A stretch of 64,000 nucleotides of DNA. Source: a virus. Taxonomy: Duplodnaviria; Caudoviricetes. Where the stretch lies: IMG/VR virus record IMGVR_UViG_3300047160_036266, positions 192,001 through 256,000 of that record; one strand, written 5' to 3'. Below are positions 156 through 62,333 of the stretch, one piece after another. Position 1 is the first letter of the stretch. The number at the start of each line of letters is the position of its first letter. The notes under the pieces are model-generated. The model ran no database searches and was not told the DNA's origin. It was given only the letters and a program-made list of their open reading frames with translations. The translations under genes were made by a program, and so were the position numbers.

Positions 156-599
156 ATGCAAACATTCCTTGAGTGGGCGGATGATAACGGTTTATTGTTG
201 GAAGCCGCTTTGGTTAAGTATTTATTTCCCAAGCAGTGGGGTAAGTCCGCCGATGACATGGGACAGAAGGGGTTCGCCATCTATGGCGTACCGATAAATC
301 CCCAAACCATGAAGCCGGCTGGCTCAACAATCGCCGTGTGGGCCAAGGACATCCGGCGAGCCACCCAGGAGGAAGGCCAGTTCGGCAACAACTTCGTCCT
401 GCAAGTCGTGCCGGACCCCAGGTTTGTTCGACAGGCCGGCAACATTCACATGCTCATCCTGGGCGCTGAGAGAGCCAACCAGTTGCTCGATGAATTTGAA
501 TCCTTCCAGAAGCAGCAAGCGATGGCGCAAGCTCAAAGTCAGGTTCGTCGTGTGCCTGGCAGCCGGGGCATGTTCCTTGGGAGAACCGGAACCGAGTAA
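156..599 (+). CDS. Hypothetical protein with capsid-targeting-like N-terminus
   Basis: CTATATA at 132-138, GGAGG RBS, starts MQTFLEW. Confidence 0.75.
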   Translation: MQTFLEWADDNGLLLEAALVKYLFPKQWGKSADDMGQKGFAIYGVPINPQTMKPAGSTIAVWAKDIRRATQEEGQFGNNFVLQVVPDPRFVRQAGNIHMLILGAERANQLLDEFESFQKQQAMAQAQSQVRRVPGSRGMFLGRTGTE

Positions 600-610
600 C
601 TATATACGGC

Positions 611-1210
611 ATGTGGCGATTCCGTGAATATGTTGAATCCAGGGACAAATCCTTTAGCGAACTATGGCAACGGAGTGCGGGCTTACTCGGCTCCAAACAG
701 GCCAAGCTCGCCCCTCCGTCAGCCCAACCTGCCGCAACAGCCCCAGCACAACAAAAAAACTGGCTGACGCCTGTGCCGCAGCACACGGGCGGGCACCTTA
801 CACTTTACCGTGGCATCGGCGGTGACTTCGATCCACATTACTACAGCGCCCAACAAGCGTGGAGCATGGACCTAGAAACCGCCTATGAGTATGCCCTCAA
901 AAACGCCAATGCCCAAGACACCCTCCCAACCGTTGTAAAAACGACGTTGCCAGGACATCTTCTCGATCCAAACCGTATAGGCATACCCACGGACAAAGCA
1001 GTTATGCACGCCAGCGGAACCGCCATTGTAGACATACCGCCGCCCGTATTACAAAAGCTGAAGGTCGAAGTTATCCCCCAACAGGAATTGGACCATAAAT
1101 TTCCATACAACGCTAAATGGGCGTACCAATTACGACAAGCGGCCCACCGGGCTGCTCATGGTATGGACCCCAATGCGGAGGAAGACTGGATGATTTCGGT
1201 GGACGATTAG
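611..1210 (+). CDS. Putative ADP-ribosyltransferase-fold protein
   Basis: LTLYRG...AWSMDLETAYEYA resembles ART R and S motifs; CTATATA 4 nt upstream of ATG. Confidence 0.5.
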   Translation: MWRFREYVESRDKSFSELWQRSAGLLGSKQAKLAPPSAQPAATAPAQQKNWLTPVPQHTGGHLTLYRGIGGDFDPHYYSAQQAWSMDLETAYEYALKNANAQDTLPTVVKTTLPGHLLDPNRIGIPTDKAVMHASGTAIVDIPPPVLQKLKVEVIPQQELDHKFPYNAKWAYQLRQAAHRAAHGMDPNAEEDWMISVDD

Positions 1211-3991: not shown

Positions 3992-3995
3992 GGTA

Positions 3996-5349: not shown

Positions 5350-5370
5350 GCCAGGGTTGAACTGACAAGT

Positions 5371-6298: not shown

Positions 6299-6583
6299 TT
6301 ATTCTGTCTCGTATTCCTTGCCCGGCTCCTCACGGGTGCCGCCTTCCGGCCCGATGGCATAGTCGGGCGGCGTCTTGTGATGAACGTGGTGCTTATATTT
6401 GGTGAACGGCGGGCCGGGTGCCATCTTTTGGATGGCATCGGCAGCGCTGGGGATGAACCAGAGATCGGGGTAGTGGGAGCGTATATATCCATCCGGGTAC
6501 GCCCACCAAGCGATGCCGGCACGCTTGGTGCTTTCATCCAACTCCAGGTTGTGCCCTTCGACCCAATGGAAAAACGTATCCAT
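6299..6583 (-). CDS. Small WAYPD-motif protein, copy 2
   Basis: TKRAGIAWWAYPDGYIR..YPD..FIPSAADAIQKM; paralogue of 6592..6810. Confidence 0.75.
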   Translation of the reverse strand: MDTFFHWVEGHNLELDESTKRAGIAWWAYPDGYIRSHYPDLWFIPSAADAIQKMAPGPPFTKYKHHVHHKTPPDYAIGPEGGTREEPGKEYETE

Positions 6584-6591: not shown

Positions 6592-6810
6592 TTACGGGGC
6601 TTCGTCAGAAGGTGCCTTGCGGCTAGGCTGATGCTTGCCCATCTTCTGTAGGGCGTCGGCAGCGTGGGGCATGAAATAACCGTCCGGGTACTGCTGGCGA
6701 ACATAGGCATCGGGGTAAGCCCAATGAGCAATACCGGCCCGCTTGGTGTCTTCACTGACTGCGGGGATTTCCAGCTTGTTCTCTTCGGCCCATGCGATAA
6801 ATGTCTTCAT
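6592..6810 (-). CDS. Small WAYPD-motif protein, copy 1
   Basis: GAGG RBS; MKTFIAW start; TKRAGIAHWAYPDAYVR..YPD..FMPHAADALQKM. Confidence 0.75.
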   Translation of the reverse strand: MKTFIAWAEENKLEIPAVSEDTKRAGIAHWAYPDAYVRQQYPDGYFMPHAADALQKMGKHQPSRKAPSDEAP

Positions 6811-9415: not shown

Positions 9416-10423
9416 ATGCTAGGATATTCACAGTGGAAGAAGCTGAACGAGTCGTTCGCTGGCGCGATCCCTCTCGGTGTTTCCAGTCCCAACAGCCTGG
9501 GCGTTCGTGGTGGCATCGAGGGCACTCGCATTGCCCTGGAGGAAGCTCGCAAGAAGTCCAAGAAATATGCCGACGTGGATGTTGAGGACGAAGGCGGCGA
9601 TGACGTAATGAATCCAGACACCGACGAGGACGAAGGTGGCTGCAAGTTCTGCGGCAAGTCCAAGAAGAACGCAGCCAAGAAGTCCGTGAAGCGATCCAAG
9701 AAATACATGGGTGCCGATATGGACCTGGGCGGCGGCGATTTTGAGGACGCCGGCCCGCCCCCACCCCACCACAAGCTGGGCAAGGGCAAGCCCTTTGGCA
9801 AGGGCAAGCACCCCCTCCATCCCGACCATCTCGGCGGTGGCGATGATGATGACCTGGGTGGTCTGGGTGGCGATGATGACGACCTGGGCGGTCTGGGTGG
9901 CGATGATGATATGGGCGGCGACCTGGGCGGCGGCGATGATGATATGGGCGGCGACCTGGGCGGCGGCGATGACGATATGGACATGGGCGGCGACCTGGGT
10001 GGACCTCCCGGACACCCCGACCTCCACCATCCTGGTGGTCCCCTCAACAAGCATTCCGCCATGCACAAGAAGCCTTTCCACCCCGGCAAGGGTGGCGACC
10101 TGGATATGAAGATGGCTGCGGCCATGATGAAGAAGAAAATGGCGAAGCGAATGAGGAAGGAAGCCTTCCTGCACGACGATGACGAATGGCTGGCAAGCGT
10201 GAAGTCGATGTTGACGCCCCAGAATGTGAAGTATGGTGACGGTTGGACCGAATATCAGGAGGAGGCGCTATTGCCGCCCTCCGATCCCAATGCGGCTGTT
10301 ACCGATAGGGAGCCTCAGCCCGGCGAACCCGGCTTTGCGCCGGTCGGACGGGTAGGCCCGCCTCTGGGTGGCAACGCCGTTGACGGGTTCAATGAATGGC
10401 GCAGACAGAATCGCAAGCGGTAA
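9416..10423 (+). CDS. Gly/Asp-repeat low-complexity protein, putative head-internal
   Basis: ATATATA at 9383, GGGAG RBS, MLGYSQWKKLNE start, DDDMGGDLGGG repeats. Confidence 0.75.
   Translation: MLGYSQWKKLNESFAGAIPLGVSSPNSLGVRGGIEGTRIALEEARKKSKKYADVDVEDEGGDDVMNPDTDEDEGGCKFCGKSKKNAAKKSVKRSKKYMGADMDLGGGDFEDAGPPPPHHKLGKGKPFGKGKHPLHPDHLGGGDDDDLGGLGGDDDDLGGLGGDDDMGGDLGGGDDDMGGDLGGGDDDMDMGGDLGGPPGHPDLHHPGGPLNKHSAMHKKPFHPGKGGDLDMKMAAAMMKKKMAKRMRKEAFLHDDDEWLASVKSMLTPQNVKYGDGWTEYQEEALLPPSDPNAAVTDREPQPGEPGFAPVGRVGPPLGGNAVDGFNEWRRQNRKR
9839..10000 (+). repeat. In-frame tandem repeats of 30-39 bp
   Basis: Five units beginning ggcgatga(t/c) encoding GDDDDLGGLG / GDDDMGGDLGG. Confidence 0.85.
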
Positions 10424-11328: not shown

Positions 11329-11469
11329 ATGAAACTCAAGAATTTCTGGCTTCAGAAAATCCGAGAGAAGTCCCTCCTTAAAATAGTCGAGTGGGCGCAA
11401 AAGAACGGCAAGAAGGTGGAAGACCTTTCCCGTGATGACGTGCGCGAGGCCATCGTTTCGCAGCGCTAA
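11329..11469 (+). CDS. Small hypothetical protein
   Basis: 46-aa ORF divergent from epimerase. Confidence 0.45.
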   Translation: MKLKNFWLQKIREKSLLKIVEWAQKNGKKVEDLSRDDVREAIVSQR

Positions 11470-11649
11470 CGCCACAGCTTATTCGACACGCCCGTGGGCG
11501 ACCAATCGTGGGTGTCGGGGGTTGTATTTCCCGAAGGTCGAAGGTCACGAACCTTATCCAGCCGCCGGCGCTTGTCGGCGGACAGGTCTTTGGTTGCCTT
11601 CTCGGTACGTTCTAACCAGGCTTTGAAGCATAGTTTCACGAGAATATCT

Positions 11650-14698: not shown

Positions 14699-14986
14699 AT
14701 GAACAGCTTCAAAGAGTTTTTCTGGGACGGGGAGGTTATTGGCTTGTACCTCAACCGCCAGGATTTGAAAATATCCGAGATCGCCCGCCACTGCTCGAAG
14801 TCCCAGGCCGAAATATATCGCATCCTGCACGACAACGGCATCAAGCCCAACCGGCTGAAGACCGGCCACGAGGCCGTGCAGCAGCTTGCCGAACGGGGCT
14901 GGACGGTGGGCGAAATTGCCAACATGACCGGCTACACGGATCGGAACGTCCGCTATATTCTCTCCAAGATGAGGCTGAGCGAGTGA
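14699..14986 (+). CDS. Tandem HTH DNA-binding protein
   Basis: ISEIARHCSKSQAEIYRIL and TVGEIANMTGYTDRNVRYIL; CTAAATA at 14684. Confidence 0.75.
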   Translation: MNSFKEFFWDGEVIGLYLNRQDLKISEIARHCSKSQAEIYRILHDNGIKPNRLKTGHEAVQQLAERGWTVGEIANMTGYTDRNVRYILSKMRLSE

Positions 14987-36208: not shown

Positions 36209-37087
36209 TTATGCCTCCAAATTTGCTGGCGGTTCCATTGTTTGTTCTGGCGGTCGTGGCTGACCACGCATCTTATCCAGGTAGCCAGCGACCTTATTTA
36301 CGTTGGTCGTCTTGCCGCCACCCGATGCCTGTTCCGCCGGAAATACGGCCTTCAGCACAGCGGCCAGCATGTCCAGGGCGAACTCTTTGACCTGCGGCGT
36401 GTCCTCGCGCCAGTCATCTATATGGTAGTCTTGAGCGTATTTGTTCTTGAGAGTAATAACCGTGTTCCGCAGGTTGCTCAGCATGTGCGGGGGAAGGGGA
36501 ATGCGGTTCTTGCCGACGATCTTTTTGAGTTGATTCCAGTCGCCTGAACCCTCGTCCTCCTGGTTCATTGCTCGGCCCAATAGCCGGGTGTCCGTGGTCC
36601 GGGCGCTGCCACTGATGTCGGAGTCGGGTAGAATGAGCTTGAGAATGGTGCCCATCATTTGGATGGCGAATTTCTTGGCTGTACCGGCAGGTATATCAAC
36701 CTTGAAGTTGGCCCGGCCTTTGTTTTTGGATACCAGATTGGCAAACTGGTCCTTCGTCTTTTCAACTTCCCCGGCCATCGCGTGTTCGTAGTCGGTGGTA
36801 AGTTCGCCTCTGAGTCGATTTGCTTTGGGTTGAAGGGCCGTAACCATCCCCGTCTTCGGCGCGATACGCACCCGATCAAAAAGGTACTTCAGACGCGAGA
36901 AGTCTGAATTGGTTTCTTCGTCTTCCGGGGCTTCCGGTCGGGGCGGTCTTGGCGCACGCTCAGGCTTGGGTGGAGGAGTGGCTGGCTGCGCCTTGGGGGC
37001 GTCCATTGGATCGCCCGGCGGCATCATGGGGCTGGGAGGCGGGGCTTGTTCGTACAGTTTTCTGCGCCATTGGTTGAGCGTTATCAT
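36209..37087 (-). CDS. Pro-rich protein with internal duplicated helical domain
   Basis: MITLNQWRRKLYE; KKFAIQMMGTILKLILP vs KEFALDMLAAVLKAVFP. Confidence 0.7.
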   Translation of the reverse strand: MITLNQWRRKLYEQAPPPSPMMPPGDPMDAPKAQPATPPPKPERAPRPPRPEAPEDEETNSDFSRLKYLFDRVRIAPKTGMVTALQPKANRLRGELTTDYEHAMAGEVEKTKDQFANLVSKNKGRANFKVDIPAGTAKKFAIQMMGTILKLILPDSDISGSARTTDTRLLGRAMNQEDEGSGDWNQLKKIVGKNRIPLPPHMLSNLRNTVITLKNKYAQDYHIDDWREDTPQVKEFALDMLAAVLKAVFPAEQASGGGKTTNVNKVAGYLDKMRGQPRPPEQTMEPPANLEA

Positions 37088-37440
37088 AGTTCGTCACGGT
37101 CCTCCGGCGGTTCTGGCGTACTGCCGCCCCCAAAGGGGTCTTCCTCCGAAGTATGGATGAGCTTGCCACGCTTCTTCGGGTCCGGCACAGCGTCCGCCTG
37201 CTGTACTTTTTCAAGAACGTGCCGCACCTTGCTGTGCCATCCCGATATAACGGTCATAGGCACGCCCAATAGTTCAGACATGCCGGCTCCGTTGTTGATA
37301 ACGAGTAGGAAATCGTCCCAGAAATCCTCCCGCACGTTGATGCCGGTACGGATCGCATCCATCGCCTTCGACTCAGAGGCTTTGTTTTCTTCCTCACGGA
37401 AGTTGTGCATATTTTCCAGAAGCCTCTGGAACGAAGTCAT
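37084..37440 (-). CDS. Hypothetical protein
   Basis: MTSFQRLLE; GGAGG RBS. Confidence 0.7.
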   Translation of the reverse strand: MTSFQRLLENMHNFREEENKASESKAMDAIRTGINVREDFWDDFLLVINNGAGMSELLGVPMTVISGWHSKVRHVLEKVQQADAVPDPKKRGKLIHTSEEDPFGGGSTPEPPEDRDEL

Positions 37441-37889: not shown

Positions 37890-38141
37890 TTAGGGTACTA
37901 CCTTCCTTTTCTTGTCTGGTTCGGGCATTTCTTCCTCGTCTTCTTCCTCATCGCCTTCTTCCTCATCGCCCTTGACTCCGAGGAACAGTTCGTCAGGATT
38001 GAACGTACTAGGCCCATTGGGTGCTTCCCGTGCGTGGTACTTGCTATTGACGCCCTTGATGCCGAACGCGATGTTGGCGTTATTGGGGTCGTCAATTACC
38101 GGCCCCACCATCTCCTGCAACCACTGGCGGAAGGTTTTCAT
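37890..38141 (-). CDS. Small acidic protein with capsid-targeting-like N-terminus
   Basis: MKTFRQWLQE; TATATA 4 nt upstream. Confidence 0.7.
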   Translation of the reverse strand: MKTFRQWLQEMVGPVIDDPNNANIAFGIKGVNSKYHAREAPNGPSTFNPDELFLGVKGDEEEGDEEEDEEEMPEPDKKRKVVP

Positions 38142-38185
38142 GTCATATATAAGCAGCATTGGGGCAATTGTCGCTATATACCTGC

Positions 38186-39559
38186 ATGTTCCGCATGAAC
38201 TTCAGGGACTTTCTGCATGAGGCCGAGATCGTGGGTGGACAGTTGATGGGCAGCGAACAGGCTGCGCTGCGCATCGTCATGCCCTTCAGAAATAGCAACT
38301 GGCACATGCTGACCCTGCTCGATGGCCCACACCATCCGATCCATAGCCCGAAACAAGGCTCTATTATCGACTGCATGACCGTGGAGGAATTCCTGACCAA
38401 CGGCCTAGCCGGCTGGGCGGACGACGACACGCCACGACCTCGCCACCTTGCGGTTCTCCAGGTCATTGATAAGAACGCTGCGATCCGCTGTTTGGACGGC
38501 ACCCACATGACCAATCCCTGGCAATGGTTAAACTTCGACGCCAACTTTATGCGTCAAGCAGCAATGCGTGGCTTAAAAGACATGAAGCCGGTTATGTATC
38601 AGGGCAAGGAAATCAGTCCGGGTGGTGCCCCGAATTGGGAGAAGATAGCGCATCAGATGTTTCACGGCCCTGACCCGTTCGCCAAACCGGGGGCGAAGCA
38701 GCCTGACCTAACGGATCAGGAACGGGATGAGATGTGGCGAGCCAAGCTCGCCAAGACCATCTATGGCGATCTGCCCGACGTGTATGCCAAAGGAACCCGG
38801 CGGGACACGATGTACAACGACAAATATTATCAGCGGTACGGCAAGGTCATGCGGGGTGCCGACATCGACATCGTGGCTGAACATTGCCCGCTGAGCAAGG
38901 GTGGTTTTATCAAGGTCTTCAACCCCAGGGTTGTGCGCGAGGTCGCGCGTTTTCAAATTCGTTCTAACTTTGACGGCTATCGCAGCATGGGTGGTGACTT
39001 TTTGGCGACCAGGCCGGCATCGGAGAAGGAAGCCGAAGGAGTACAAGATAAACTCAACGACATCTTCCAAGATATTGCAGATGCACCGGAGGAAATGAGC
39101 AAGCGCATCGGCTATGTTATGGACAGCGAAGAGATGATGCGTTACATGGGGGGCGAGGAAGTTGAGGGTATCGGCTCGTTTGTGTTCCATGTGCTAGACG
39201 AAATCCACACCATCACCCGGACGGAGGGTATGGAGAAGATGATCCGTGGCTTGTACAAGGCATCCCGGCTCATGGGCATGATGCGCACACGCAGCGGCCA
39301 AGACTTCTCCGATGCCTGGGACGGAGTAGTTCGGTACAATCTTGAGTTCTACAAGAATATCCTGGTCGGCCTCCGGTCGATGAGCAAGCTCATCAAGGAT
39401 CAGTACGCTTACAAGGAAGGTGACAAGTATTACCGTGATGAGGCTGCTAAGCTCGACAAATGGTTTGCTGGGCTGACGCGATCCCTCATGGCCTTTGCGG
39501 ATGTGACGGGCCAATCGACGGAGCTACTGCGGCACCAACTTGGCCTGTTCACTGCTTAA
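38186..39559 (+). CDS. Hypothetical protein, putative head-internal
   Basis: Reads on + strand; CTATATA 5 nt upstream; MFRMNFRDFLHE. Confidence 0.75.
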   Translation: MFRMNFRDFLHEAEIVGGQLMGSEQAALRIVMPFRNSNWHMLTLLDGPHHPIHSPKQGSIIDCMTVEEFLTNGLAGWADDDTPRPRHLAVLQVIDKNAAIRCLDGTHMTNPWQWLNFDANFMRQAAMRGLKDMKPVMYQGKEISPGGAPNWEKIAHQMFHGPDPFAKPGAKQPDLTDQERDEMWRAKLAKTIYGDLPDVYAKGTRRDTMYNDKYYQRYGKVMRGADIDIVAEHCPLSKGGFIKVFNPRVVREVARFQIRSNFDGYRSMGGDFLATRPASEKEAEGVQDKLNDIFQDIADAPEEMSKRIGYVMDSEEMMRYMGGEEVEGIGSFVFHVLDEIHTITRTEGMEKMIRGLYKASRLMGMMRTRSGQDFSDAWDGVVRYNLEFYKNILVGLRSMSKLIKDQYAYKEGDKYYRDEAAKLDKWFAGLTRSLMAFADVTGQSTELLRHQLGLFTA

Positions 39560-43055: not shown

Positions 43056-44627
43056 ATGCAAACTTTCCAAGATTATGTGACTTCCAATAAAATGCACCGG
43101 CTGGCCGGACAGGCGTTTACCCTGATGGTCCAGCACGGCTACGATCCGATGGCGTTCGTAGAGTGGTTTGAGGACGAGGGCGTTTACCTGTCGGTGCGGG
43201 AAGCAGCAGTCCAAGCGAAAGGTGGGCTTCGTCGCCTGGATGAATTATCATGGGCTAACTTGGTAGGAAAAGGGTGGTTGTGGGGGCGTGGCAAGCAACA
43301 GCCAAAAGGACCAAGTTGGGATGAAATCGGCGGGCCGGAAATGTTCCCCCATGATGAAACCCCCGGTGCCGCAGGCGCAGCCCAAGGTGCCACTCCGGGA
43401 CAGCCACAGCAACCAATGACTGCGCCGCAAATGGGCGACCTTACCAAACAGCGTGCAGTCCAAAATGCTGTAACCAAGCTGCAAGATTTGCAATACAAAG
43501 ATTGGATTTATGACAAGAACCCTCAGCTTACTGCGGCGCTGAATCAAATTGTTCAGTTGTTGCAGGCCCCGCAGGTGCCGGTACAGCAAACGCAACCACC
43601 AGCCGCCCCCACAGAACAACCAGCCAAACCACCACAGGTTCATGCCTCAACGATAGCACCCGTTGGGTCGCCGCCGCCGGGTGGTGCGCATATGGCTCCT
43701 TCGTTTATGAATGCCGACTGGCGTACTCCTGCCGGTTCGCCATTGAGGGAGTACAACAAGATGCTTATTGACCGTACCGTGGATAAACTGGTACGGGCAG
43801 GCATCAACCCGATGTTATTTGTGGACTGGTATAGCACCGAAGGTATTTTCTGTGAAAACGCTCAGGTGTTCGAGGGCCGCTTAGGGGATTGGATGGGGGC
43901 CATTGGCAAGGGTATTGGGAGTTGGTTCGGTGGAAGCGGCTTTAAGCACGGTTATGATGCGCGTTACAACACCATTGCCGTGCAGACGGCAGGAGCGGCC
44001 AGGCAAGCCTTGGCTGATCTCCAAAGCACTCACCCAGACCTGGGTGGCCCAAATATGGCCAGCAACCTAAAGTTCGCAATCGGTGAGTTGGATAAGATCA
44101 TCAAAGAGAAGGGCGGCACTGAATTTAAGGACATCAACAAGCCGGCATCGGGAGTGGATTGGTCCAAACTGAAAGGGCCAACGCCTGGTGAAGAGCAACC
44201 ACCGGGTTCGGCGCAGCCGCCTGCGGCGGCTAAGCCTGCGGAACCCGCCCCCGCACCAGTACCGGCGGGTCACACTCCTGGCACTACAGCACCGTCGCAG
44301 GAAGGCATCCCACCGGAGACTATAACCAAGCTCCGTAATGCAATAGACAATCCAAGCCATGCCGATGCCAGCGACCCCCAGGTGGCGGAAATCCTGAATA
44401 ACCCACAGATCAAGGCCGAGGTCGAGCGGATTCACAAACTGGATGACAATGACCCGCAATTTGCCGGAAAAGACCCGCAAACAGCGAAGCACGAACTAAT
44501 TGCCCAGCAGGTCCGAAATATTTGGGACCAACTGCGCAGCGGTCATATTGATGTTGGTGCCCAGGGTGCTGACTGGTACAGACCCATCGGCAAGCCCTTT
44601 ATGGAATGGCTCAGAGAGAGGCAATAA
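43056..44627 (+). CDS. Modular Pro/Gln-rich protein with duplicated domain, putative head-internal
   Basis: MQTFQDY; GYDPMAFVEWFEDEG vs GINPMLFVDWYSTEG; ends FMEWLRE. Confidence 0.75.
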   Translation: MQTFQDYVTSNKMHRLAGQAFTLMVQHGYDPMAFVEWFEDEGVYLSVREAAVQAKGGLRRLDELSWANLVGKGWLWGRGKQQPKGPSWDEIGGPEMFPHDETPGAAGAAQGATPGQPQQPMTAPQMGDLTKQRAVQNAVTKLQDLQYKDWIYDKNPQLTAALNQIVQLLQAPQVPVQQTQPPAAPTEQPAKPPQVHASTIAPVGSPPPGGAHMAPSFMNADWRTPAGSPLREYNKMLIDRTVDKLVRAGINPMLFVDWYSTEGIFCENAQVFEGRLGDWMGAIGKGIGSWFGGSGFKHGYDARYNTIAVQTAGAARQALADLQSTHPDLGGPNMASNLKFAIGELDKIIKEKGGTEFKDINKPASGVDWSKLKGPTPGEEQPPGSAQPPAAAKPAEPAPAPVPAGHTPGTTAPSQEGIPPETITKLRNAIDNPSHADASDPQVAEILNNPQIKAEVERIHKLDDNDPQFAGKDPQTAKHELIAQQVRNIWDQLRSGHIDVGAQGADWYRPIGKPFMEWLRERQ

Positions 44628-46107: not shown

Positions 46108-46139
46108 GTTTTATTATAGTGCGTTCCCTACATATTTCC

Positions 46140-47558
46140 ATGCCAGATGCCCTGTCCTTCCGCCTGTGGTTACAACAGCAGGAGACGCTGCCGCCGTTTG
46201 AGGAAGGCGTCATGCAGTGGCTTGGCGATAAATGGGGTAGGTTCAAGAAGTGGCTGGGCGATTTGAAGCAGGCGGCTGGCGCGACCTATCGCTCCGTCAT
46301 GGTCATGTGGAAGAAAGCCCCGGAACTGCATAACGTGCTGATGGAATTGCCCATTGCCTTTGACGCCGCCATGCGCGACCCCGTTCTCAAGGACACCACC
46401 CTCAATAAGAGCTTCATCGCTGCCCTCAAGCAGATGTCCCAAGACCCCTCGCTGGAAAAACAAGCAATACTCGCCAAGATCAAGAATATTCAGCAGTTGG
46501 TTCAGCAAGGCGGCGACGAGGCAGCCATTGCTGAGGAGTTCTGGCGGTCCAACGTCGGAGGCTTTGTCCGCTGGCTGTGGCAGCTTACTCACCTGGGTCC
46601 GATCCTGAAGCGACTGCCCCAGGTCACGGTGGTAAATGCCTGGCGGACTTTGCAGGCGTTCTGGGATAAGGAGCAGGGGAAAGTATCCGTCAAGGTCGGT
46701 GCCTTTGCCGCCGTTATGGCAGCCCTGGAGTTGTTGCAATTTCTGGCAGCCGGTGCCCTGATGACCGGGTTGTTGGGCAAGGCCCTTATTCTCTTGCACC
46801 TTACCACGCTGGGGGTGGCTTTTGCCGGCGGGGCCTGGATTGCCTGGGCGGTGGTCAGCGCCCTCCATAAAGAGGGAGGCCAAAAGGACTCTGAGGAAGA
46901 GCAGGCTGCCAAGATCATGGCCGGTGTGATGAAGGCCATCGACCCAGGTGCCGACACGGGCCTCATGAAGAATGTGGACTGGTATAAGAGCCATCTGCGG
47001 CAGCGCCAGCAGAAGATACAGCAGCAGCGCGCCGGCGTCCAACCAGCAGTTGCCGAAAGTACCGCCCACGAGTTATACGATAGCGCCGTTGCCGCCTTCC
47101 CCAACACCACCAGGAGGCAACACGCTACGGACCCCATTAGAATCACCCAACTGGAGTGGACGCCCTTCCTGGGACTGAAAACCCTGTTCATCAAGGCCCT
47201 GGCGCAAAACCCGGACGGCACCAGGGGCTTCTCGGAATATCAGCCGATGATTTTGTGGAAGAACGTCAACTACAATCCGAACCGGCGAGTTGTTGAGATC
47301 ATCGCCAGTGACCAGCAGCCCTATCGCTTCGAGAGGTTGGAATATGATGGCAATGACGTGTTGCTGCGCTGTGATTGTGCCGACTTCCACTGGCGATTCA
47401 ACTACTACGACCACCTGGACAAGTCCCTTTACGGCAGGAAGCGGCGCAAATACGAGAGTCAGGGCGGTCCTCCGGCCAACCCCCAGGAGATGCCGGGCAT
47501 GTGCAAACACATCATGAAGCTGTTCAAGGCTTTAGGTGAAGCAGGCGTCGTTGATTAG
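46140..47558 (+). CDS. Hydrophobic-hairpin + SWIM zinc-finger protein
   Basis: CTACATA 5 nt upstream; long hydrophobic segment; LRCDCADF...MCKHI. Confidence 0.75.
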   Translation: MPDALSFRLWLQQQETLPPFEEGVMQWLGDKWGRFKKWLGDLKQAAGATYRSVMVMWKKAPELHNVLMELPIAFDAAMRDPVLKDTTLNKSFIAALKQMSQDPSLEKQAILAKIKNIQQLVQQGGDEAAIAEEFWRSNVGGFVRWLWQLTHLGPILKRLPQVTVVNAWRTLQAFWDKEQGKVSVKVGAFAAVMAALELLQFLAAGALMTGLLGKALILLHLTTLGVAFAGGAWIAWAVVSALHKEGGQKDSEEEQAAKIMAGVMKAIDPGADTGLMKNVDWYKSHLRQRQQKIQQQRAGVQPAVAESTAHELYDSAVAAFPNTTRRQHATDPIRITQLEWTPFLGLKTLFIKALAQNPDGTRGFSEYQPMILWKNVNYNPNRRVVEIIASDQQPYRFERLEYDGNDVLLRCDCADFHWRFNYYDHLDKSLYGRKRRKYESQGGPPANPQEMPGMCKHIMKLFKALGEAGVVD

Positions 47559-49772: not shown

Positions 49773-50474
49773 ATGAAGTCATATAACCAGTGGAGCAACG
49801 ATCAAAATATCCACGGCAACCCTATTCCGTGGCCCACGCGCAATAATACCAACCCGTGGGGCGTTCCACAGAATCCTTACCAACCCAATATTCCGCCAAA
49901 CAATATGGGCATCGGCAAGCTCGGAACGAATATAAACATCGGACGTAAGTTCAGGTGGACTCTGGAGTTAAAATACAAGGACTCCACCCTGCTTGGCCCC
50001 TTCTTTGTTAAAGTGGCCAGCCGTCCGAACCTGAATATTGAAGAGACGACCGTGGACTACCTATCGGACAAATATTGGGTGGCCGGGCAGTCACGCTGGC
50101 AAGATTTGCAGGTGAGCGCTTATATTGACGGGCAGAGTGCCGGCGACCCCAAGACCGCCGAACATCAAATAGTCAATGGTATGGGAGAGTTGGCCTACGC
50201 GCAGGGTTTGACCGGGATGTTACGTCTATGGGACGGCTGCGGTACGGAACTGGAAAATTGGGAATTGAAGAATATGTTTTGCCAGAACATCCAGAGCGAT
50301 CTGGAGTACAGCAGCAGCGATATAACGGTGGAAATGACCTTCAAATACAGCGAGGCGAAATATTCCTCAACCATGCAACCTTGGACCCCTGGTGAGTTGG
50401 CTGCGAAGAAGCGGCAGGCACTCATTGACAAGGCGAGGGCCTATGCCCCGCACTTACGGTTCACTGAATTTTAG
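49773..50474 (+). CDS. T4 gp19-like tail tube protein paralogue with N/P/Q-rich extension
   Basis: RKFRW, VKVASRPNLNIEET, W.AG..RWQDLQV, LWDGCG..LENWEL, LEYSSSD..VEMTFKY. Confidence 0.75.
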   Translation: MKSYNQWSNDQNIHGNPIPWPTRNNTNPWGVPQNPYQPNIPPNNMGIGKLGTNINIGRKFRWTLELKYKDSTLLGPFFVKVASRPNLNIEETTVDYLSDKYWVAGQSRWQDLQVSAYIDGQSAGDPKTAEHQIVNGMGELAYAQGLTGMLRLWDGCGTELENWELKNMFCQNIQSDLEYSSSDITVEMTFKYSEAKYSSTMQPWTPGELAAKKRQALIDKARAYAPHLRFTEF

Positions 50475-51081
50475 TGGCTCGGACGAGGTATTGCGGGTCG
50501 GTGTCAGGGGTGCTGTGCCAGCAGATGATACCCAGGTGGTTAGTCTTCTCCCCGCTGGTTTCCTTGTCGTGCCAGCGGTTCTCGAAGTCCTCGTAAGATA
50601 GTTTGCCCCGGTCGCCTTCGATGGACGGGTCTTCAAAGTAGATGTTTTCGCCGTCGTAACCGATGGCGACGACGTAGTGGCCGCTTTCGTCGGTTTTGTA
50701 GTATTTGGGTGCGCCCCAGGCTTGAATATTGCAGATGACCGGCCATTGCTTATCAATATAAGACAGGAGTTCGTTGAGGGACATATCCTCTTTTTTGACG
50801 GCGTTGAGGCCGAAGAATTTGGCCCCTCGCACAATATTGTCCGGCTCAGTGCCTTCCTTTTCGTTGGTTTTGAGGGCCTTGATGAAATCGTCTTCACTGT
50901 CGGGGCCAAGTTTGTAGAACTCGCAAATGGCACGCAGGGCGGCGGCACCGCAGCTAAAGCTTTTTTGCTGTCGCACGCTTGGCAGTGGTATCTTGACATA
51001 CTGGAGTATTTCCCCGTTCGGGACTTGGTGCTTCTTCTCTTCCATGAGAAACCATTCCTTGAAAGTAACCCGTGCATTCAT
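50461..51081 (-). CDS. Stand-alone C39-family cysteine peptidase with capsid-targeting-like N-terminus
   Basis: VTFKEWFLMEE; QQKSFSCG, SGHYVVAIGYD, YFEDP. Confidence 0.85.
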   Translation of the reverse strand: MNARVTFKEWFLMEEKKHQVPNGEILQYVKIPLPSVRQQKSFSCGAAALRAICEFYKLGPDSEDDFIKALKTNEKEGTEPDNIVRGAKFFGLNAVKKEDMSLNELLSYIDKQWPVICNIQAWGAPKYYKTDESGHYVVAIGYDGENIYFEDPSIEGDRGKLSYEDFENRWHDKETSGEKTNHLGIICWHSTPDTDPQYLVRATKIQ

Positions 51082-51090: not shown

Positions 51091-51474
51091 TTACCACCCG
51101 TGTTTTTTGGCGATGCGGTCGGCACACTTCTTAATTCCTCCTGGGTTGGGCGCATGACGGGAATATGCCTTGGCGGCACGGACCTGCTTCTTGTTGGACA
51201 CAGGGAAGCTCTTGCCAGGTGCGCCGCCGGACGGGCCGCAGAACGGTCCTTCGCCGGGGCCGCTGGTTTCCCGCTCCTTGCCGACGTTGGAGCCGCCGGG
51301 CTTGTCATGCACGTCCTTGTGTTCCCGCTCGACCAGCCATTCCTTGAACTTCTTCCAGCCCGCACGCTTCATCTTGGCCTTGTGGGCGGCAGACTCACCC
51401 TCTTCCTCATCATGGTCGAGGTCGATGCCGGTACGTTCTTCCTCACGTTCCAGTTCTCGGTGTGATTTCTTCAT
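51091..51474 (-). CDS. Small charged protein
   Basis: Internal FKEWLVERE; FCGPSGGAPGKSFPV..AKAYSRHAPNP; ATATATA 4 nt upstream. Confidence 0.7.
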   Translation of the reverse strand: MKKSHRELEREEERTGIDLDHDEEEGESAAHKAKMKRAGWKKFKEWLVEREHKDVHDKPGGSNVGKERETSGPGEGPFCGPSGGAPGKSFPVSNKKQVRAAKAYSRHAPNPGGIKKCADRIAKKHGW

Positions 51475-51490: not shown

Positions 51491-51754
51491 CTATTTCTTT
51501 TTCTGCTTCTTGGGACCAGGGGCCGCAGGCATGGGCGGCTTCGCCCCGCCGGGCGCACCACCTACGGGGGCGGCACCGCCCGTCTGCATGGTGCCGGGGC
51601 ACGGACCTGGGCCACCGGCGCAGGAACTCTTGCTGTGGTAGGTTGCTGAGTCGGAAGGTCGCTGGCCGGCTGGAAACTTACTGGCGTCGGCCTTGTCGTC
51701 GGCCACCATCAAGCCTTCACGGACCAGCCACTCCTGAAATGAAAGAAACCCCAT
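51491..51754 (-). CDS. Small Gly/Pro-rich protein with capsid-targeting-like N-terminus
   Basis: MGFLSFQEWLVRE; CTACATA 4 nt upstream. Confidence 0.7.
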   Translation of the reverse strand: MGFLSFQEWLVREGLMVADDKADASKFPAGQRPSDSATYHSKSSCAGGPGPCPGTMQTGGAAPVGGAPGGAKPPMPAAPGPKKQKKK

Positions 51755-51784
51755 GCACTATGTAGTAGTGCATGGGGTTTCTTT
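51742..51784. promoter_or_regulatory. Perfect 19-bp inverted repeat covering a late promoter and start codon
   Basis: aaagaaaccccatgcacta-tgtag-tagtgcatggggtttcttt. Confidence 0.75.
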
Positions 51785-52978: not shown

Positions 52979-53001
52979 CCTTATCCTTTCTAAATATGAA
53001 T

Positions 53002-53202
53002 ATGCCATTCGTCAGCAAAGCGCAACGACGTGCCTGTTATGCCCGCAACGACCCGAATTGGGATTGCGGTGAGTGGGAGTCCCACACACACGGCGACTTA
53101 CCCGAACGCAAGAAGAAGATGAGGAAATCCTTTAAGGAGTGGGTTCTTGAGAGGGAGGCTCGTTCTGGAGCCGCTGACCCTCCAGCAGAACGGCGTGCAT
53201 AA
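53002..53202 (+). CDS. Small basic phage protein
   Basis: CTAAATA 5 nt upstream; MPFVSKAQRR; KSFKEWVLERE. Confidence 0.65.
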   Translation: MPFVSKAQRRACYARNDPNWDCGEWESHTHGDLPERKKKMRKSFKEWVLEREARSGAADPPAERRA

Positions 53203-56779: not shown

Positions 56780-58216
56780 TTAGATCACAAAATTCGCAAT
56801 TGACATGCGGGCATAGAACTTGGACCCTTCGCGCAAAAGCTTCTTTCCGTATCTGGTAAGTATACCTTTCCGTGGGCAGAAGCTCTCAGGATCAAGCACT
56901 ACCGGCGTCTGGGTCAATGGGACATATGGGCAGTAGAAATATCCGCTATCCATATAACTGTCGCCTTTATAACCCATAAGTATCTGGTTTGTCGGGAATA
57001 GCGGGTCTTTGTAGAGCCGCCAACGGTTGTTGACCGTGCCGACATACTGGATACCCAGAGACGAAGTGAACGTCTCAGACGGGGCGGGCGCGAAACCTGC
57101 GGTGGCCGTCTCGAAGATGGAAGCGACTTCTGGGGAAGTCACGAGCCAGTTCGCACCACCACGCAACGTCTTCCGGTGGACGACGTTGGAGACTTCTACG
57201 ATTTTCACATATAGTGACTCGTACTTCTCTTTGATAGTTTCGCCTAATGCGGTGTTAAAATCCCATGCCGAAACCGTACCGGCATTATTGCGGAGGTCCG
57301 TCAATACTTCACGGTCGATTTCGAGGTTGATTTCCTGGGCCAGAACGGCGGTCAGTTCCGCCTCGGCGTCCAGGTTGTGCTGCGAGCGCAAGTCCTGCTG
57401 AGCCTCATAGCTCCACACTGCCTTGAGCTTACGAGTCTTGGCAGCGATCTCTTCCGACTCAACCACGAGGTTGATTTCGGGGAGGTCTTGCTGGCACTCC
57501 ATGTTATACTCGTAAGACATAACGGCGTGGTTCGCGCCGGGGGCTGCGTTCCACGTCAACGTCATCTCACCCGTGGTGAGGTTCAAGCTACCAGCCGTGG
57601 CGAAGGTCGCCGGGGAGCCGATAGACGTGAAGTTGAACGTGCCAGCCGAAGAAACCACGAAGGTCTGCACGGCGGTAGTGCCCTGGTAAACCGTACCAGT
57701 CACGGTGCCGGCCAGGACGGGCGTATGCTCGAATGGAGCGTATACGGAGGTCGTCACAACGCCGTTATCGGTGCTGGAGGTTTCATTCTGGACAAACTGG
57801 TGTGAATACCAGATGTCCAGGTTGGCAGTACCGTCAGCCAACTGCTGGAGCGAGTTTACGTCGTCAGCCGGGAACCCGGAGTTGTTGTCAGCGCCACGGG
57901 TCGCGCCCTTGTTGGACGAGTACCGGAAGCGCAGGTAGTACACCAACCCGGTCGGGCCAAGCAATGGCTGGACCGACACGATCTTGTTGGCGATCAACTG
58001 CGGGTAAATACGACGAACGAGCGGGATAGAGATGCGCTTGAACTGAGCAATATCGCTCGTGTCCGTAGACACTTCGTTCATGAGGCGCTGGTTTTCGAGA
58101 AGAACTGCACAGGCAGAACGGACATAACGATCCTCAATACCTTCAAGCAGACCAGTACGGCCCCAACGACTCTCTAATTCCCTAGCTTCGTTCAAAAATC
58201 TAGCGTTTGCGTTCAT
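56780..58216 (-). CDS. gp23: Major capsid protein (T4 gp23-like)
   Basis: AVLLENQ, IPLVRR, SVQPLLGP, KTRKLKAVWSYEAQQDL, EINLEIDREV, GYFYCPYVPL, PRKGILTRYG. Confidence 0.97.
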   Translation of the reverse strand: MNANARFLNEARELESRWGRTGLLEGIEDRYVRSACAVLLENQRLMNEVSTDTSDIAQFKRISIPLVRRIYPQLIANKIVSVQPLLGPTGLVYYLRFRYSSNKGATRGADNNSGFPADDVNSLQQLADGTANLDIWYSHQFVQNETSSTDNGVVTTSVYAPFEHTPVLAGTVTGTVYQGTTAVQTFVVSSAGTFNFTSIGSPATFATAGSLNLTTGEMTLTWNAAPGANHAVMSYEYNMECQQDLPEINLVVESEEIAAKTRKLKAVWSYEAQQDLRSQHNLDAEAELTAVLAQEINLEIDREVLTDLRNNAGTVSAWDFNTALGETIKEKYESLYVKIVEVSNVVHRKTLRGGANWLVTSPEVASIFETATAGFAPAPSETFTSSLGIQYVGTVNNRWRLYKDPLFPTNQILMGYKGDSYMDSGYFYCPYVPLTQTPVVLDPESFCPRKGILTRYGKKLLREGSKFYARMSIANFVI

Positions 58217-58241
58217 GTAGTTCCTTTATTAGACCCTCTAA

Positions 58242-59141
58242 TTAGCGGTCCTTTTTGACTCCAGAAAGAACGAGTAGTTCGTTGATTTCACTGTCGGGGT
58301 TGTTATATTCCGCAATAACAACGCCTTCCTCAGTGTTAGTATGTCCTCTCCCCGTTGCGTTCTTCACTTTCTGCACTCTTTCTTTCTGCTCAGTTATAAG
58401 CTGGCCCTTTTTCTGTTCGCTCTTGGCCTGCCTCTGTTCGGTGAGAAGTTCCTGAGCGTGGCGAACCGTCTCATTTAGCTTAGTATTGTCGTTCGATAAA
58501 CGAATATTGCGTGCTTCCATAATGCGAAGCTGGCCACGAAGCTCGTCATTCCCCTTGCGGGCTTCTTCGAGCTTGCTGCTGGTCGCCAGTGCATAGTCCT
58601 CGTCGGACAGGTAATTGGCGGTGATGTCCACGATCTTGTCGAGGGTGACTTTGTGTTCGGCCATGCGGGGGTCGTTGAGTACATCACGCTTGGCCTGCTC
58701 GTATATCTCGGCACCCTTGAACTGGAGGAACTGGTCCACCTTGTCAACGATGTAGTCCTTCATCTCGCCAAGCTTCTTGTCGTACTCCTCGTACATATCA
58801 ACTTCGAGCGTGTTGTTCTTTTCACGCTCTTGGAGGAGCATCTGATAGGCTTCCTCGTAACCCTCTTCCAGCGCCTTGTTGTACTCATCGCGCTGCATTT
58901 CCAGACGGTTCCGCAGGTCGGCAATAATGCCGTATGCCTCCTGATAGCCCTGGTAGGCGGTCTTCTCCGCATTGGACATTTCCTCAGAAAGCTGCTTATA
59001 CGCTTCCTCCAACTTGTCGTTGTACTCAGACTCCAGTTCACGCTTGCTACTTTCCAGCATGTCGTTGACGGCTGAAGCAACCTCGTTGATCTGGTCCTCT
59101 GGCAACAACTTCTTGAGAGCTTCCACTATTTTGTCTGCCAT
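58242..59141 (-). CDS. gp22: Prohead scaffolding protein (gp22-like)
   Basis: Acidic coiled coil between protease and capsid genes; ends ELLVLSGV. Confidence 0.8.
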   Translation of the reverse strand: MADKIVEALKKLLPEDQINEVASAVNDMLESSKRELESEYNDKLEEAYKQLSEEMSNAEKTAYQGYQEAYGIIADLRNRLEMQRDEYNKALEEGYEEAYQMLLQEREKNNTLEVDMYEEYDKKLGEMKDYIVDKVDQFLQFKGAEIYEQAKRDVLNDPRMAEHKVTLDKIVDITANYLSDEDYALATSSKLEEARKGNDELRGQLRIMEARNIRLSNDNTKLNETVRHAQELLTEQRQAKSEQKKGQLITEQKERVQKVKNATGRGHTNTEEGVVIAEYNNPDSEINELLVLSGVKKDR

Positions 59142-59824
59142 TAGCCTAACCTCGCTTTTATGTTGCTAGTGTGTTCTTTGAAAATACCGCCCAAATACGC
59201 AACCAGCACATCTTTATTTACCGTATGTATGCGGCTACCTTCGTTTTTGGACGGGGATTTATCAGAAAATTGGGGCACATACGTTTCCCGCTTGGGGCCG
59301 GTGGCGATCTTCTCTTGGAAGGCGGCGAACGTGCTGGGATCGGCCACAGCGTCAAACGTGATGAGCTTGTAAGACTCACCAATGACGAGGATACCGTTCT
59401 CGTCGGTTCTACCGTTACCAACGCCCCGGCTGCTAATGCCGACTCTTACGCCGTCGTTGAGGAGGCTTCGTAGAATCTTGCCGTGAGGAGTATTAAGTAT
59501 TTCCCCCTCACCCATCAAGGAAGTTCCCTCCCACCACAACTTCGTAATAACGTGGGACGCTTTCTCAAAGTGGATGATACTATCGGTGGGATGATCCAAT
59601 TCACCCACCAGGCCCCTAGCTTTGATAGCATCGTTCAGCTTCTTGATATTTTCATCAAGGACACCGAATGGATACATCCGCTTGTTCTTATTGACCGCAT
59701 CGGCCTCTTGAAACTTGCCACGAAATTTGGTTAAGCCACCAGGGGTGGTCGTCGTAGACTCATTCAAGTTAAGGACGAAGCCGGCATCTAAGCAACAGTC
59801 GATTAACAATACTTCGTCGCTCAT
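59141..59824 (-). CDS. gp21: Prohead maturation protease (T4 gp21-like)
   Basis: FQEADAVNKNKRMYP, GELDHP, SHVITKL, GISSRGVG, FDAVADPS. Confidence 0.95.
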   Translation of the reverse strand: MSDEVLLIDCCLDAGFVLNLNESTTTTPGGLTKFRGKFQEADAVNKNKRMYPFGVLDENIKKLNDAIKARGLVGELDHPTDSIIHFEKASHVITKLWWEGTSLMGEGEILNTPHGKILRSLLNDGVRVGISSRGVGNGRTDENGILVIGESYKLITFDAVADPSTFAAFQEKIATGPKRETYVPQFSDKSPSKNEGSRIHTVNKDVLVAYLGGIFKEHTSNIKARLG

Positions 59825-59832
59825 TTATCTCC

Positions 59833-61770
59833 TTAGCTTTCCTGGTCTGCCTGGCTGCCCAAGTCCTTTCTAGTGGGCTTGATATAACCCTTATCAACCA
59901 CGAGGTTGTCGTTCTTCATCTTGAAGCCCGTGCCGCCGGTCTTCACGAGTTCTTGCGGCACATACGGGTTCTCAAGATTCGGCCAGGTGTCCTTAGACTG
60001 CCACCGGCTGAAGTCGTCCTGCCCGTCATCGACAGCGGACTTCTCCTTCATCTTGTACTCACCGAATGGCTTTGGCACATATGGGTTACGCAACTCTGGG
60101 TAGGTGTCTGAACCGCCATAATTCATCCACGAATTACGCATTTCGTCGTCCAGACGGTTCTTATACGATTTGCCGTCGCTTACCGGCAGTTCGCTGCCCC
60201 AATCACCTGTATACTTGCTTGGGATAGCGCCCACCTGGGCGATCTTGGCCATGTCGGGGTGGTCGCCGCTAACGGTGCGGTAAGCACTGTTCGATACGTC
60301 CCAGGTTTCACTGGAGCGCTCGACGTTCGCTTCGACAATATTCCGTAGCCATTCGGCAATCGTTTCGGCCAGCTTCAAGTCGGGTTCTTCCTGCTTATTG
60401 AGGACCGCTTCGCAATCCATCAAATAGCTGGAGACTTCTGCCCTAGCGGCCTCGTCCCCCTCCTTTTCCACGATGCGATAAACCTCGTGTAAGGCACGGT
60501 ACAGGTCGCTAAATACCCGATACTTGATCTGCTCGGATTCATCCAAACTCGGATAGAATTGATCTGTCACTTCCTTGAATGCTTCGTAGCAGTTATCACA
60601 CTCCACCGTGGGAGTGATCTGCGAGTGGTTGATAATCTTCTTGGCGCGATCAGCGTAGGCGTGGTGCGCCATGCGGAGGATGCCCTCTGCCATGAACTCG
60701 CACTGCTGGTCGTCATAGTTGCGAACGCCCACCGTCTCCAAAGCCTGGGCGATGGTGTTGGCCAACTCTTCTTGGGTTAAGAACAACACGGTCGGCCAGC
60801 GGCCCACAATGTTTTCCAGGGTTTCCTCCAGGGCGCTATTATCTGACACGGCGTTGAAACGCTTGAGTTCCGCCACGGCGCGACAGAATTGAGCGTCTTC
60901 CTTGAGGTTCTTGGCACCCTTGCGCGAGAACTTGAGGTCCGTATTTAGCACGTCCCAATTGAAATTCAGGATTTTTCCTTCGTTCCGCTTGTGCGCCCGT
61001 GGCATACTCACGTCGGTGACGTTACCCTTGTCGTCGCTCTTGACAAAGGAATCCTTCAGGGCCGGGCCAAGGGCCTGATAATCCAGGTAGTCCATGACGT
61101 TTTCCGTCAGGACCGCCCACTCGTTAATCTTGTGCTTCTGGACCTTGCGGGCGTAGACACGCCAGCGCTTGTTGGTACTGCCGCCCAGCTTCTTTTCGGC
61201 TCGGTCCTTTTTGGCTTTCAACTGACCTGCCAGGCCGGCGGACGCCCCCAGACGGCGCTTGGTCTTTCGCATACTGCGGATTCGCTTGGCTACATCCGAA
61301 CGGCTCTGCTTGCGTCCGAACAGGGGGCCGTGTCCGCTGGGCTTGGAAACACTTACGTCAAAGGCTTCGGTAAGAGCAGCGTCCTTCAAAGTACGGCGAG
61401 TTGCCGGCAGACTCATAAACTGACTGAACAGGGCACTGGCCTTGCCGTCGTTATTATCCAGTAGGCTCTCCACGAAGTCGCTGAGAACTTGCTTGGACGA
61501 TTTCTTCTCCGTATCCTCGTCAATTACTAACTCTTCGATCCCCTCGAAAATAATGTGCGACTCGTTCATCCGATAATTGGCGTGAACGAAGCTGCCGCCC
61601 AGGGTTTCGTAGGTCACGTCTGACTCACCAAAGCAGTGGAGCTTCAAGTCGCCAGAACCCAAGGCCCTGGCCAATACGTCTTCGGCCTCGACTAACTCCC
61701 GCTCCGACGCCGAAAGCGAGTCCTTTTCAAACCTCTGAAAGTCCTCGAACTTCATGAGTTTTCTTTTCAT
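59833..61770 (-). CDS. Large prohead core-like protein
   Basis: Directly upstream of gp21; many LxE sites; GGGAG RBS. Confidence 0.65.
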   Translation of the reverse strand: MKRKLMKFEDFQRFEKDSLSASERELVEAEDVLARALGSGDLKLHCFGESDVTYETLGGSFVHANYRMNESHIIFEGIEELVIDEDTEKKSSKQVLSDFVESLLDNNDGKASALFSQFMSLPATRRTLKDAALTEAFDVSVSKPSGHGPLFGRKQSRSDVAKRIRSMRKTKRRLGASAGLAGQLKAKKDRAEKKLGGSTNKRWRVYARKVQKHKINEWAVLTENVMDYLDYQALGPALKDSFVKSDDKGNVTDVSMPRAHKRNEGKILNFNWDVLNTDLKFSRKGAKNLKEDAQFCRAVAELKRFNAVSDNSALEETLENIVGRWPTVLFLTQEELANTIAQALETVGVRNYDDQQCEFMAEGILRMAHHAYADRAKKIINHSQITPTVECDNCYEAFKEVTDQFYPSLDESEQIKYRVFSDLYRALHEVYRIVEKEGDEAARAEVSSYLMDCEAVLNKQEEPDLKLAETIAEWLRNIVEANVERSSETWDVSNSAYRTVSGDHPDMAKIAQVGAIPSKYTGDWGSELPVSDGKSYKNRLDDEMRNSWMNYGGSDTYPELRNPYVPKPFGEYKMKEKSAVDDGQDDFSRWQSKDTWPNLENPYVPQELVKTGGTGFKMKNDNLVVDKGYIKPTRKDLGSQADQES

Positions 61771-61928
61771 ATATTCAACTCCCTAATTAGGTAACGGGCC
61801 TATGTCTGCCTCGCCTTGAACCACTTATATATTAAGTCGGGTCCGATTTTATTCTGGCCATACCTGCGTAAATAACGTGTCACGCTACTACCTATCTATG
61901 CACAAGGTCGTTTTTCTGAGGGGATTAA

Positions 61929-62333
61929 ATGAAAACATTTGGCCAGTACGTTCGGCAGCGCTTGCGGGAGGATGGAAGCCCTCCGCTTGGGCTGGCACCG
62001 ACCGACGTGGGTATTAAAGCCAAGGATGACGGCCCCCTCGACCGGGACCAGGAAGTGCAGATGGGCAAGCTAATGCAACTGGTCAAGACCGCCACGCAAA
62101 AGCACCCCGAACAGGCTTTGGGCCTGCTGGAAAAGCTGGCGGACCATGACGGGGAAATCCGCAGTGGCCTCGAATCCCTCAAGGGGGAAATGCACCGCTC
62201 CGGCAACCATAAGTTCAAGGACAAGGGCCTGGGCCACCTGGGCAGCGTCGGAGACTACGACCACAAGGATCAAGTCATGCCACCCTATGCCGATCAGACC
62301 TCAGCCGGGGAGACGGACGGCGGTGGTGGTTAA
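61929..62333 (+). CDS. Hypothetical protein with capsid-targeting-like N-terminus
   Basis: MKTFGQYVRQRLRE; GAGGG RBS. Confidence 0.7.
   Translation: MKTFGQYVRQRLREDGSPPLGLAPTDVGIKAKDDGPLDRDQEVQMGKLMQLVKTATQKHPEQALGLLEKLADHDGEIRSGLESLKGEMHRSGNHKFKDKGLGHLGSVGDYDHKDQVMPPYADQTSAGETDGGGG

Follow-up and report, generated by a model that had tools for sequence, protein, structure and literature searches.

A short N-terminal peptide resembling the T4 capsid-targeting sequence recurs on unrelated proteins of an uncultivated huge phage

The capsid-targeting sequence (CTS) of the internal proteins (IPs) of bacteriophage T4 is cut once by the protease gp21, and foreign proteins fused to a CTS are packaged into the head (PMC8442874, PMC5694885). 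In the CTS of IPIII, residues 4 and 7 are the main determinants of targeting, and residues 8 and 10 those of processing; a T4 tag that cannot be cut still targets its protein, and the T4 protein Alt has propeptides at both ends (PMC9026906). In the T4 record, ipII and ipIII both read MKTYQEFIAE up to the cut, which is followed by Ala, and ipI reads MKTFKEFTSTTTPVSTITE, again followed by Ala, opening with MKTFKEF and having the site ITE. The distance to the cut site varies within T4 itself, being 10 residues in IPII and IPIII and 19 in IPI. The hypothetical T4 protein gp61.1 (54 amino acids; NC_000866 18966-19130) opens with MKTFKEFIKE, the same opening as that of IPI, with an I-K-E site, and is possibly a further CTS-bearing protein that has gone unrecognised. 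The present analysis concerns a stretch of 64,000 nucleotides of viral DNA, hereafter called the window (positions 192,001-256,000 of IMG/VR record IMGVR_UViG_3300047160_036266), and an N-terminal peptide, hereafter called the tag, which is shared by many of its open reading frames (ORFs) and resembles the T4 CTS.

Two other described systems invite comparison. The phiKZ-like giant phages (SPN3US, 201phi2-1) also have many head proteins (about 50), some of them brought in via cleavable N-terminal propeptides, and a protease related to T4 gp21. Their propeptides are, however, 80-160 residues long, have no short motif in common and are cut at A/S/G-x-E (PMC5694885), whereas the tag described here is a shared, T4-type peptide of 10-15 residues. 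The cargo-loading peptides of encapsulins are likewise short, portable helices that suffice to address unrelated cargo to the inside of a shell with the HK97 fold, but they are usually C-terminal, bind the shell protein, stay uncleaved and have no sequence relation to the tag. Among the papers searched, none links capsid-targeting tags to metagenomic huge phages.

The N-terminal tag and its distribution

The window is part of a single viral contig of 343,421 bp with 55.8 % GC, which is approximately 69 % complete (CheckV), carries the label provirus in IMG/VR and is present in soil metagenomes of more than 20 studies. A search of sequencing runs for this phage returned soil DNA contigs only and no raw RNA reads. 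The nearest public record, LR756511.1, is an unannotated sequence of 595 kb deposited as 'uncultured phage', and its major capsid protein (MCP) is 82 % identical to that of the contig; despite this identity, the GC content of LR756511.1 is 42 %, compared with 56 % in this phage.

Gene calling with a scorer of codon usage and ribosome-binding sites, blind to the motif, gave 428 genes in the genome. The pattern [FY]xx[WFY][LIVMF], beginning at residues 2-6, was present in 38 of these genes, compared with 4.7 expected from its internal rate (binomial p 2e-22) and with 4.6 on average and at most 12 in shuffled N-termini, an excess which bears out the proposal of the initial annotation that unrelated ORFs share an N-terminal tag. 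The density of the motif was approximately 38-fold higher at N-termini than at internal positions. A tag profile, comprising columns -1 to +5 around the Phe and leaving out the Met columns, was also run in six frames on Met-initiated ORFs with the reversed sequence as the control, and it found 37 Met-initiated ORFs in this genome and 1 in the control. After curation, 18 tagged ORFs were counted in the window (Table 1) and about 50 in the genome, roughly 10 % of the genes, so that the earlier figure of about 20 fits the window but is too low for the genome. The 16 N-termini quoted in the initial annotation were all recovered with their coordinates and strands, and they open ORFs of 72-523 amino acids.

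Alignment of 41 clear cases, used as seeds and anchored on the Phe, gave the consensus M-(K)-(T/S)-F-(R/K)-(E/Q)-(W>F>Y)-L-(E)-x-x-(E). The most informative column is that of the Phe (4.2 bits), followed by that of the second aromatic residue, three positions on (3.8 bits); F/Y stands in 40 of the 41 seeds and W/F/Y three residues on in an equal number, and the Phe is residue 3 or 4 in 37 of them. In the ORFs at 46140, 51081 and 51754, the motif begins 3-5 residues past the ATG. The shared N-terminal peptide is confirmed.

That the peptide arose by chance, from a single diverged family or from miscalled starts is extremely improbable, and such an origin is effectively refuted by the N-terminal enrichment, by the reversed-sequence controls (1 match against 37-41) and by the comparison of the proteins with their tags removed. 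When the first 16 residues were taken away, only one similar pair was left among 53 tagged proteins, the true paralogues encoded at 6299-6583 and 6592-6810, and the other 51 had no similarity beyond the tag. Besides this pair, a few weak matches, such as MKSYNQW (49773-50474) and that in the large terminase, are probably due to chance; the terminase match (genome position 265759) was rejected as a look-alike, its orthologue having no tag. Different Pfam domains stand behind the tag. The domains identified there are a C39-like peptidase, DUF3293, radical SAM, a UvrD-type helicase, helix-turn-helix (HTH) and a tail-tube-like domain, and most tagged proteins have no family assignment. With respect to the cargo types named in the initial annotation, the peptidase was recovered as the C39-like protein, the tube paralogue is only weakly tagged, and the ADP-ribosyltransferase-like and SWIM cargo are unconfirmed, a search for the former with Pfam PF03496 having given no match.

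In the C39-like family, to which the tag has been appended, it is present on all 14 nearest homologues, and distant homologues have signal peptides or nothing. In an AlphaFold2 model of the C39-like protein (mean pLDDT 87), the tag forms a helix of its own, of low confidence, at residues 7-17; a disordered linker comes next, and then a confident domain from approximately residue 30. The view of the tag as a portable N-terminal helix on unrelated proteins is supported.

Codons at the conserved tag positions vary synonymously (TTC/TTT, five Leu codons, GAA/GAG/CAA/CAG), and the profile built on this genome found 41 tags in LR756511.1 compared with 1 control match. Since the codons vary in this way and the same peptide recurs in a relative with 42 % GC, the tag is, on the sequence evidence, selected at the peptide level. 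It is kept in approximately 12 of 14 orthologue pairs with LR756511.1 while the cargo diverges, and conservation is lower in the tagged set than among the other proteins: a homologue in LR756511.1 was found for 16 of 52 tagged proteins (31 %) and for 181 of 376 untagged ones (48 %, p 0.025).

The tag is also found in other viruses. A degenerate DNA pattern for MKTFx(E/Q)WL matched at least 118 stretches in IMG/VR. Among the matches listed (118 loci, 1.09 Mb), 159 distinct tags were found compared with 1 in the reversed control; 76 of the 159 were not picked by the DNA pattern itself, and 75 of 83 pattern matches stand at ORF starts. A protease of the S77 family, to which T4 gp21 belongs, is encoded in 7 of the 10 long tag-bearing contigs among these matches, including both complete ones, and the three without it are fragments, 33-79 % complete.

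Likeness to the T4 system

The tag resembles the T4 CTS in being an N-terminal peptide of approximately 10-19 residues which opens with M-K-T, is aromatic at positions 4 and 7 and aliphatic at position 8 and has, in part of the cases, a hydrophobic-x-Glu sequence downstream, and in being carried by unrelated and poorly conserved proteins. The tag of ORF 37890-38141 (-) comes closest to the T4 geometry (L8-x-E10). Position 7 is mostly Trp in this phage, and the usual place of the Glu is position 9 (W-L-E) or 12 instead of 10. T4 has four or five carriers, compared with about 50 per genome here, approximately 10 % of the genes and including large enzymes. Further differences from T4 are the extra internal and C-terminal copies of the motif, the leaderless TATA-type box upstream of half of the tagged genes, and the fact that the system is known here from sequence alone.

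The genome also shares with T4 a Gp23-family MCP and an S77 protease, and it has a scaffold candidate rich in LxE sites; the three are encoded close together in the window (Table 1). The protease aligned with gp21 with the H78, S131/S132 and D158 columns in common. The N-terminal propeptide of the MCP holds LNE, LLE, LLE and MNE, the last of which aligned near the LTE65 cut of T4. The scaffold candidate contains 19 [LIM]xE sites compared with 7.6±2.3 expected from its own composition, and the corresponding figures for T4 gp22 are 17 and 6.7. The likeness to the T4 CTS suggested in the initial annotation holds at the mapped aromatic residues 4 and 7, and the phage encodes corresponding machinery in the S77 protease, the Gp23 protein and the [LIM]xE-enriched scaffold candidate.

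It is on the whole likely that the tag is a T4-type capsid-targeting and propeptide sequence in a lineage-specific version, strongly expanded across a clade of huge phages, and the proteins that bear it probably form a very large set of virion cargo. In the mechanism that we propose, the tag would be a short amphipathic helix at the N-terminus, with a flexible linker between it and the cargo, as in the AlphaFold2 model, and its two aromatic residues would dock the nascent protein on the assembling prohead core, probably on the gp22-like scaffold. After closure of the Gp23-type shell, the S77 gp21-like protease would degrade the scaffold at [L/I/M]-x-E sites and trim those tags that have a hydrophobic-x-Glu site, freeing the cargo inside the head, and the cargo would be ejected with the DNA, by analogy with the IPs and Alt of T4. 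The lineage would have expanded the set from the four or five proteins of T4 to about 50 unrelated, fast-turnover proteins per genome, among them the C39-like peptidase, HTH proteins, a radical-SAM enzyme and a helicase.

Evidence against capsid targeting and alternative explanations

A number of results weigh against this interpretation, and some of them favour other explanations of the tag. The phage is uncultivated and known from soil DNA. BLASTP of the scaffold candidate against T4 gp22 detected no homology, and the putative portal had no family match, no match in a sequence search of the PDB and no detectable homology to gp20. A predicted complex of the scaffold candidate with the tagged protein of ORF 37890-38141 (-) had a score of 0.00 with low partner confidence, a result that counts neither for nor against targeting.

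Canonical [LIVM]xE sites were found within +5 to +12 of the Phe in 16 of 37 tags of this genome (43 %) and in 14 of 41 tags of LR756511.1 (34 %), compared with a background of 13-17 %. Fewer than half of the tags therefore have the canonical L-x-E, the commonest Glu yields W-L-E, a form without precedent in T4, and inspection of the tags revealed no P1' preference after the candidate Glu. If aromatic P3 residues (W-L-E) are counted as well, 76 % of the tags have a site, a figure which is partly circular because the profile favours that Glu. The (I/L)xE processing site put forward in the initial annotation was thus found, in its canonical [LIVM]xE form, after 43 % of the tags, the rest being without it. 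Processing of many tags appears plausible.

Copies of the motif also occur away from N-termini, 11 compared with 1.0 in shuffles at a score of at least 13, and a second copy was found in the last 40 residues of 5 of 46 N-tagged proteins but of only 3 of 348 untagged ones (p 8e-4). The internal and C-terminal copies quoted earlier are real: FKEWLVERE in ORF 51091-51474 (-), residue 44, SFKEWVLERE in ORF 52996-53202 (+) and FMEWLRE at the C-terminus of ORF 43056-44627 (+). Motif-like second copies are present in the proteins encoded at 43056-44627 and 9416-10423 of the window and at 122708-124357, 127076-127423 and 260361-261551 of the genome, and in a Nudix-like protein (genome 186325-186804) the C-terminus is the only site of the motif.

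As copies at internal and C-terminal sites are above chance, the motif may be a general docking peptide. The FxxWL helix would then dock, usually from the N-terminus but also from internal or C-terminal sites, on some other hub of phage or host (for instance a chaperone, a factory for replication or transcription, or a receptor on a membrane or compartment), and the proteins would not be packaged. In addition to both classes of extra copies and the Nudix-like protein, such a role would agree with the UvrD-type helicase and the radical-SAM enzyme in the tagged set, which are less obvious head cargo, with the HTH proteins and with the lack of a canonical cleavage site in more than half of the tags. 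We nevertheless consider it unlikely, given the approximately 38-fold N-terminal density and the fixed distance from Met1, the residue-for-residue match to the T4 CTS at the mapped positions in a genome with a T4-type head module, and the fact that no candidate for the alternative hub was identified. The C-terminal second copies fit two-ended propeptides like those of T4 Alt and a general docking motif equally well; as Alt has propeptides at both ends (PMC9026906), they are compatible with head targeting.

The sequences upstream of the tagged genes suggest the possibility of an origin unconnected with targeting. At least 35 genes without a Shine-Dalgarno (SD) sequence have a box of the form CTA(T/A/G/C)ATA, resembling the T4 late promoter, the end of which lies 4-5 nt ahead of the start codon (ATG or GTG). 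This arrangement, with a sharp genome-wide peak in position, implies leaderless mRNAs. Such a box was found 3-9 nt before the start of 26 of 52 tagged genes compared with 13 of 377 untagged genes (odds ratio 28, p 5e-18), and the order box-ATG-tag recurs in LR756511.1 and in many IMG/VR contigs, e.g. GGCCTAGATAGGGC-ATG. The shared N-terminus could accordingly be a by-product of expression or mobility, that is, a preferred opening of leaderless mRNAs or the 5' edge of a recombining cassette of promoter and start, without any targeting role. This is very improbable, since 23 tagged genes are SD-led and without the box and many boxed genes are untagged, and since it is the amino acids that are conserved, under varying codons and across a 14-point difference in GC. 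A Trp and a Phe three residues apart, moreover, have no known role in initiation.

The PHROG assignments of the boxed untagged genes were mixed (helicase, methyltransferase, adaptor-like protein, head protein). Because the box class also drives the helicase and the methyltransferase, timing lends no support to capsid targeting and, with 23 SD-led tagged genes, the box does not account for the tag or indicate when it is expressed. No homologue of the T4 late sigma factor gp55 was detectable in this genome, which is only approximately 69 % complete, and the boxes are therefore not called 'late'. In the intergenic region 61771-61928, between the divergent putative portal gene and ORF 61929, TATATA and TAAATA boxes lie approximately 50-55 nt upstream of each SD-led start, so that the box class also occurs with leaders.

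If the tag works as in T4, the proteins carried in capsids, and probably injected, by uncultivated huge phages could be listed from their sequences only, and the CTS principle would scale from a handful of proteins to approximately 10 % of a genome. The tagged proteins, mostly of unknown function, would then be candidate anti-defence and host-takeover effectors, and the natural variation of the tag (W7, the shifting Glu, the C-terminal copies) could refine the packaging rules for T4-based vectors. More tentatively, the huge phages of one widespread clade, from soil and aquatic habitats, might reserve about one gene in ten for a 'starter proteome' made in advance (enzymes, proteases, DNA-binding regulators and disordered proteins), which the FxxW tag would bring into the capsid and which would be injected along with the DNA; the tag and the leaderless box together would be a portable cassette able to recruit any gene. 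We regard this as possible but somewhat doubtful; were it true, the injected repertoire of uncultivated phages would be readable directly from sequence.

Tagged ORFs and other features of the window

The tagged ORFs, the head genes, two further ORFs with copies of the motif and examples of the box are listed in Table 1. The tag residues of ORF 38195-39559 are invariant in its three metagenomic homologues, and a search of the ESM Atlas with this ORF gave no match. The LR756511 orthologue of ORF 61929-62333 begins with MKRFLDYY.

Table 1 Positions of tagged ORFs, motif copies, head genes and upstream boxes in the window
Feature	Positions	Strand	Length (aa)	Tag or motif	Remarks
Tagged ORF	156..599	+	147	MQTFLEW...LLLE	
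Tagged ORF	611..1210	+	199	MWRFREYVE	TATATA box ending 4 nt before ATG
Tagged ORF	6299..6583	-	94	MDTFFHWVE	Paralogue of 6592-6810
Tagged ORF	6592..6810	-	72	MKTFIAWAEE	Paralogue of 6299-6583
Tagged ORF	9416..10423	+	335	MLGYSQWKKLNE	Acidic/Gly low-complexity body; C-terminal second copy GFNEWRRQ
Tagged ORF	11466..11639	-	57	(M)KLCFKAWLERTE	GTG start; TAGATA box 5 nt upstream
Tagged ORF	14699..14986	+	95	MNSFKEFF	Helix-turn-helix matches
Tagged ORF	35798..36208	-	136	MRKFAQWMRETKLNE	
Tagged ORF	36209..37087	-	292	MITLNQWRRKLYE	Pro-rich linker after tag
Tagged ORF	37084..37440	-	118	MTSFQRLLE	
Tagged ORF	37890..38141	-	83	MKTFRQWLQE	TATATA box 4 nt upstream
Tagged ORF	38195..39559	+	454	MNFRDFLHEAE	
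Tagged ORF	43056..44627	+	523	MQTFQDY	C-terminal copy PFMEWLRERQ
Tagged ORF	46140..47558	+	472	MPDALSFRLWLQQQE	TACATA box 5 nt upstream
Weakly tagged ORF	49773..50474	+	233	MKSYNQW	Residues 79-202 match tail-tube PHROG
Tagged C39-like (papain-fold) peptidase	50461..51081	-	206	MNARVTFKEWFLMEE	
Tagged ORF	51491..51754	-	87	MGFLSFQEWLVRE	
Tagged ORF	61929..62333	+	134	MKTFGQYVRQRLRE	Divergent from head operon
ORF with internal copy	51091..51474	-	127	KKFKEWLVERE at residue 43	Leaderless TATATA box
ORF with copy near C-terminus	52996..53202	+	68	SFKEWVLERE	
Major capsid protein, Gp23 family	56780..58216	-			PF07068 1.6e-87
Putative gp22-like scaffold	58242..59141	-	299		Between protease and MCP genes; assigned from position and composition only
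Prohead protease, Peptidase_S77 (T4 gp21 family)	59141..59824	-			PF03420 1.3e-25
Putative portal	59833..61770	-	645		Gene-20-like position only
Box example	596-610				
Box example	38142-38160				
Box example	38170-38194				
Box example	46125-46139				
Box example	51755-51770				

Several other genes were noted in the window. A giant ORF of 3,219 amino acids (17872-27531, -) has no Pfam match and is followed by three paralogous ORFs of approximately 390 amino acids (27535-28713, 28785-29981 and 29999-31171), all of which start with MPNP(L/I)Y(Y/F)DRRKQ; the giant ORF and the three paralogues may encode fibre or host-recognition proteins. The auxiliary genes noted encode a full-length Glu/Leu/Phe/Val dehydrogenase (40900-42156, -; E 8e-62), an RNA ligase (1207-2463, -), a phiEco32-like COOH-NH2 ligase (12942-13859, -) and an aminotransferase (44611-45828, -).

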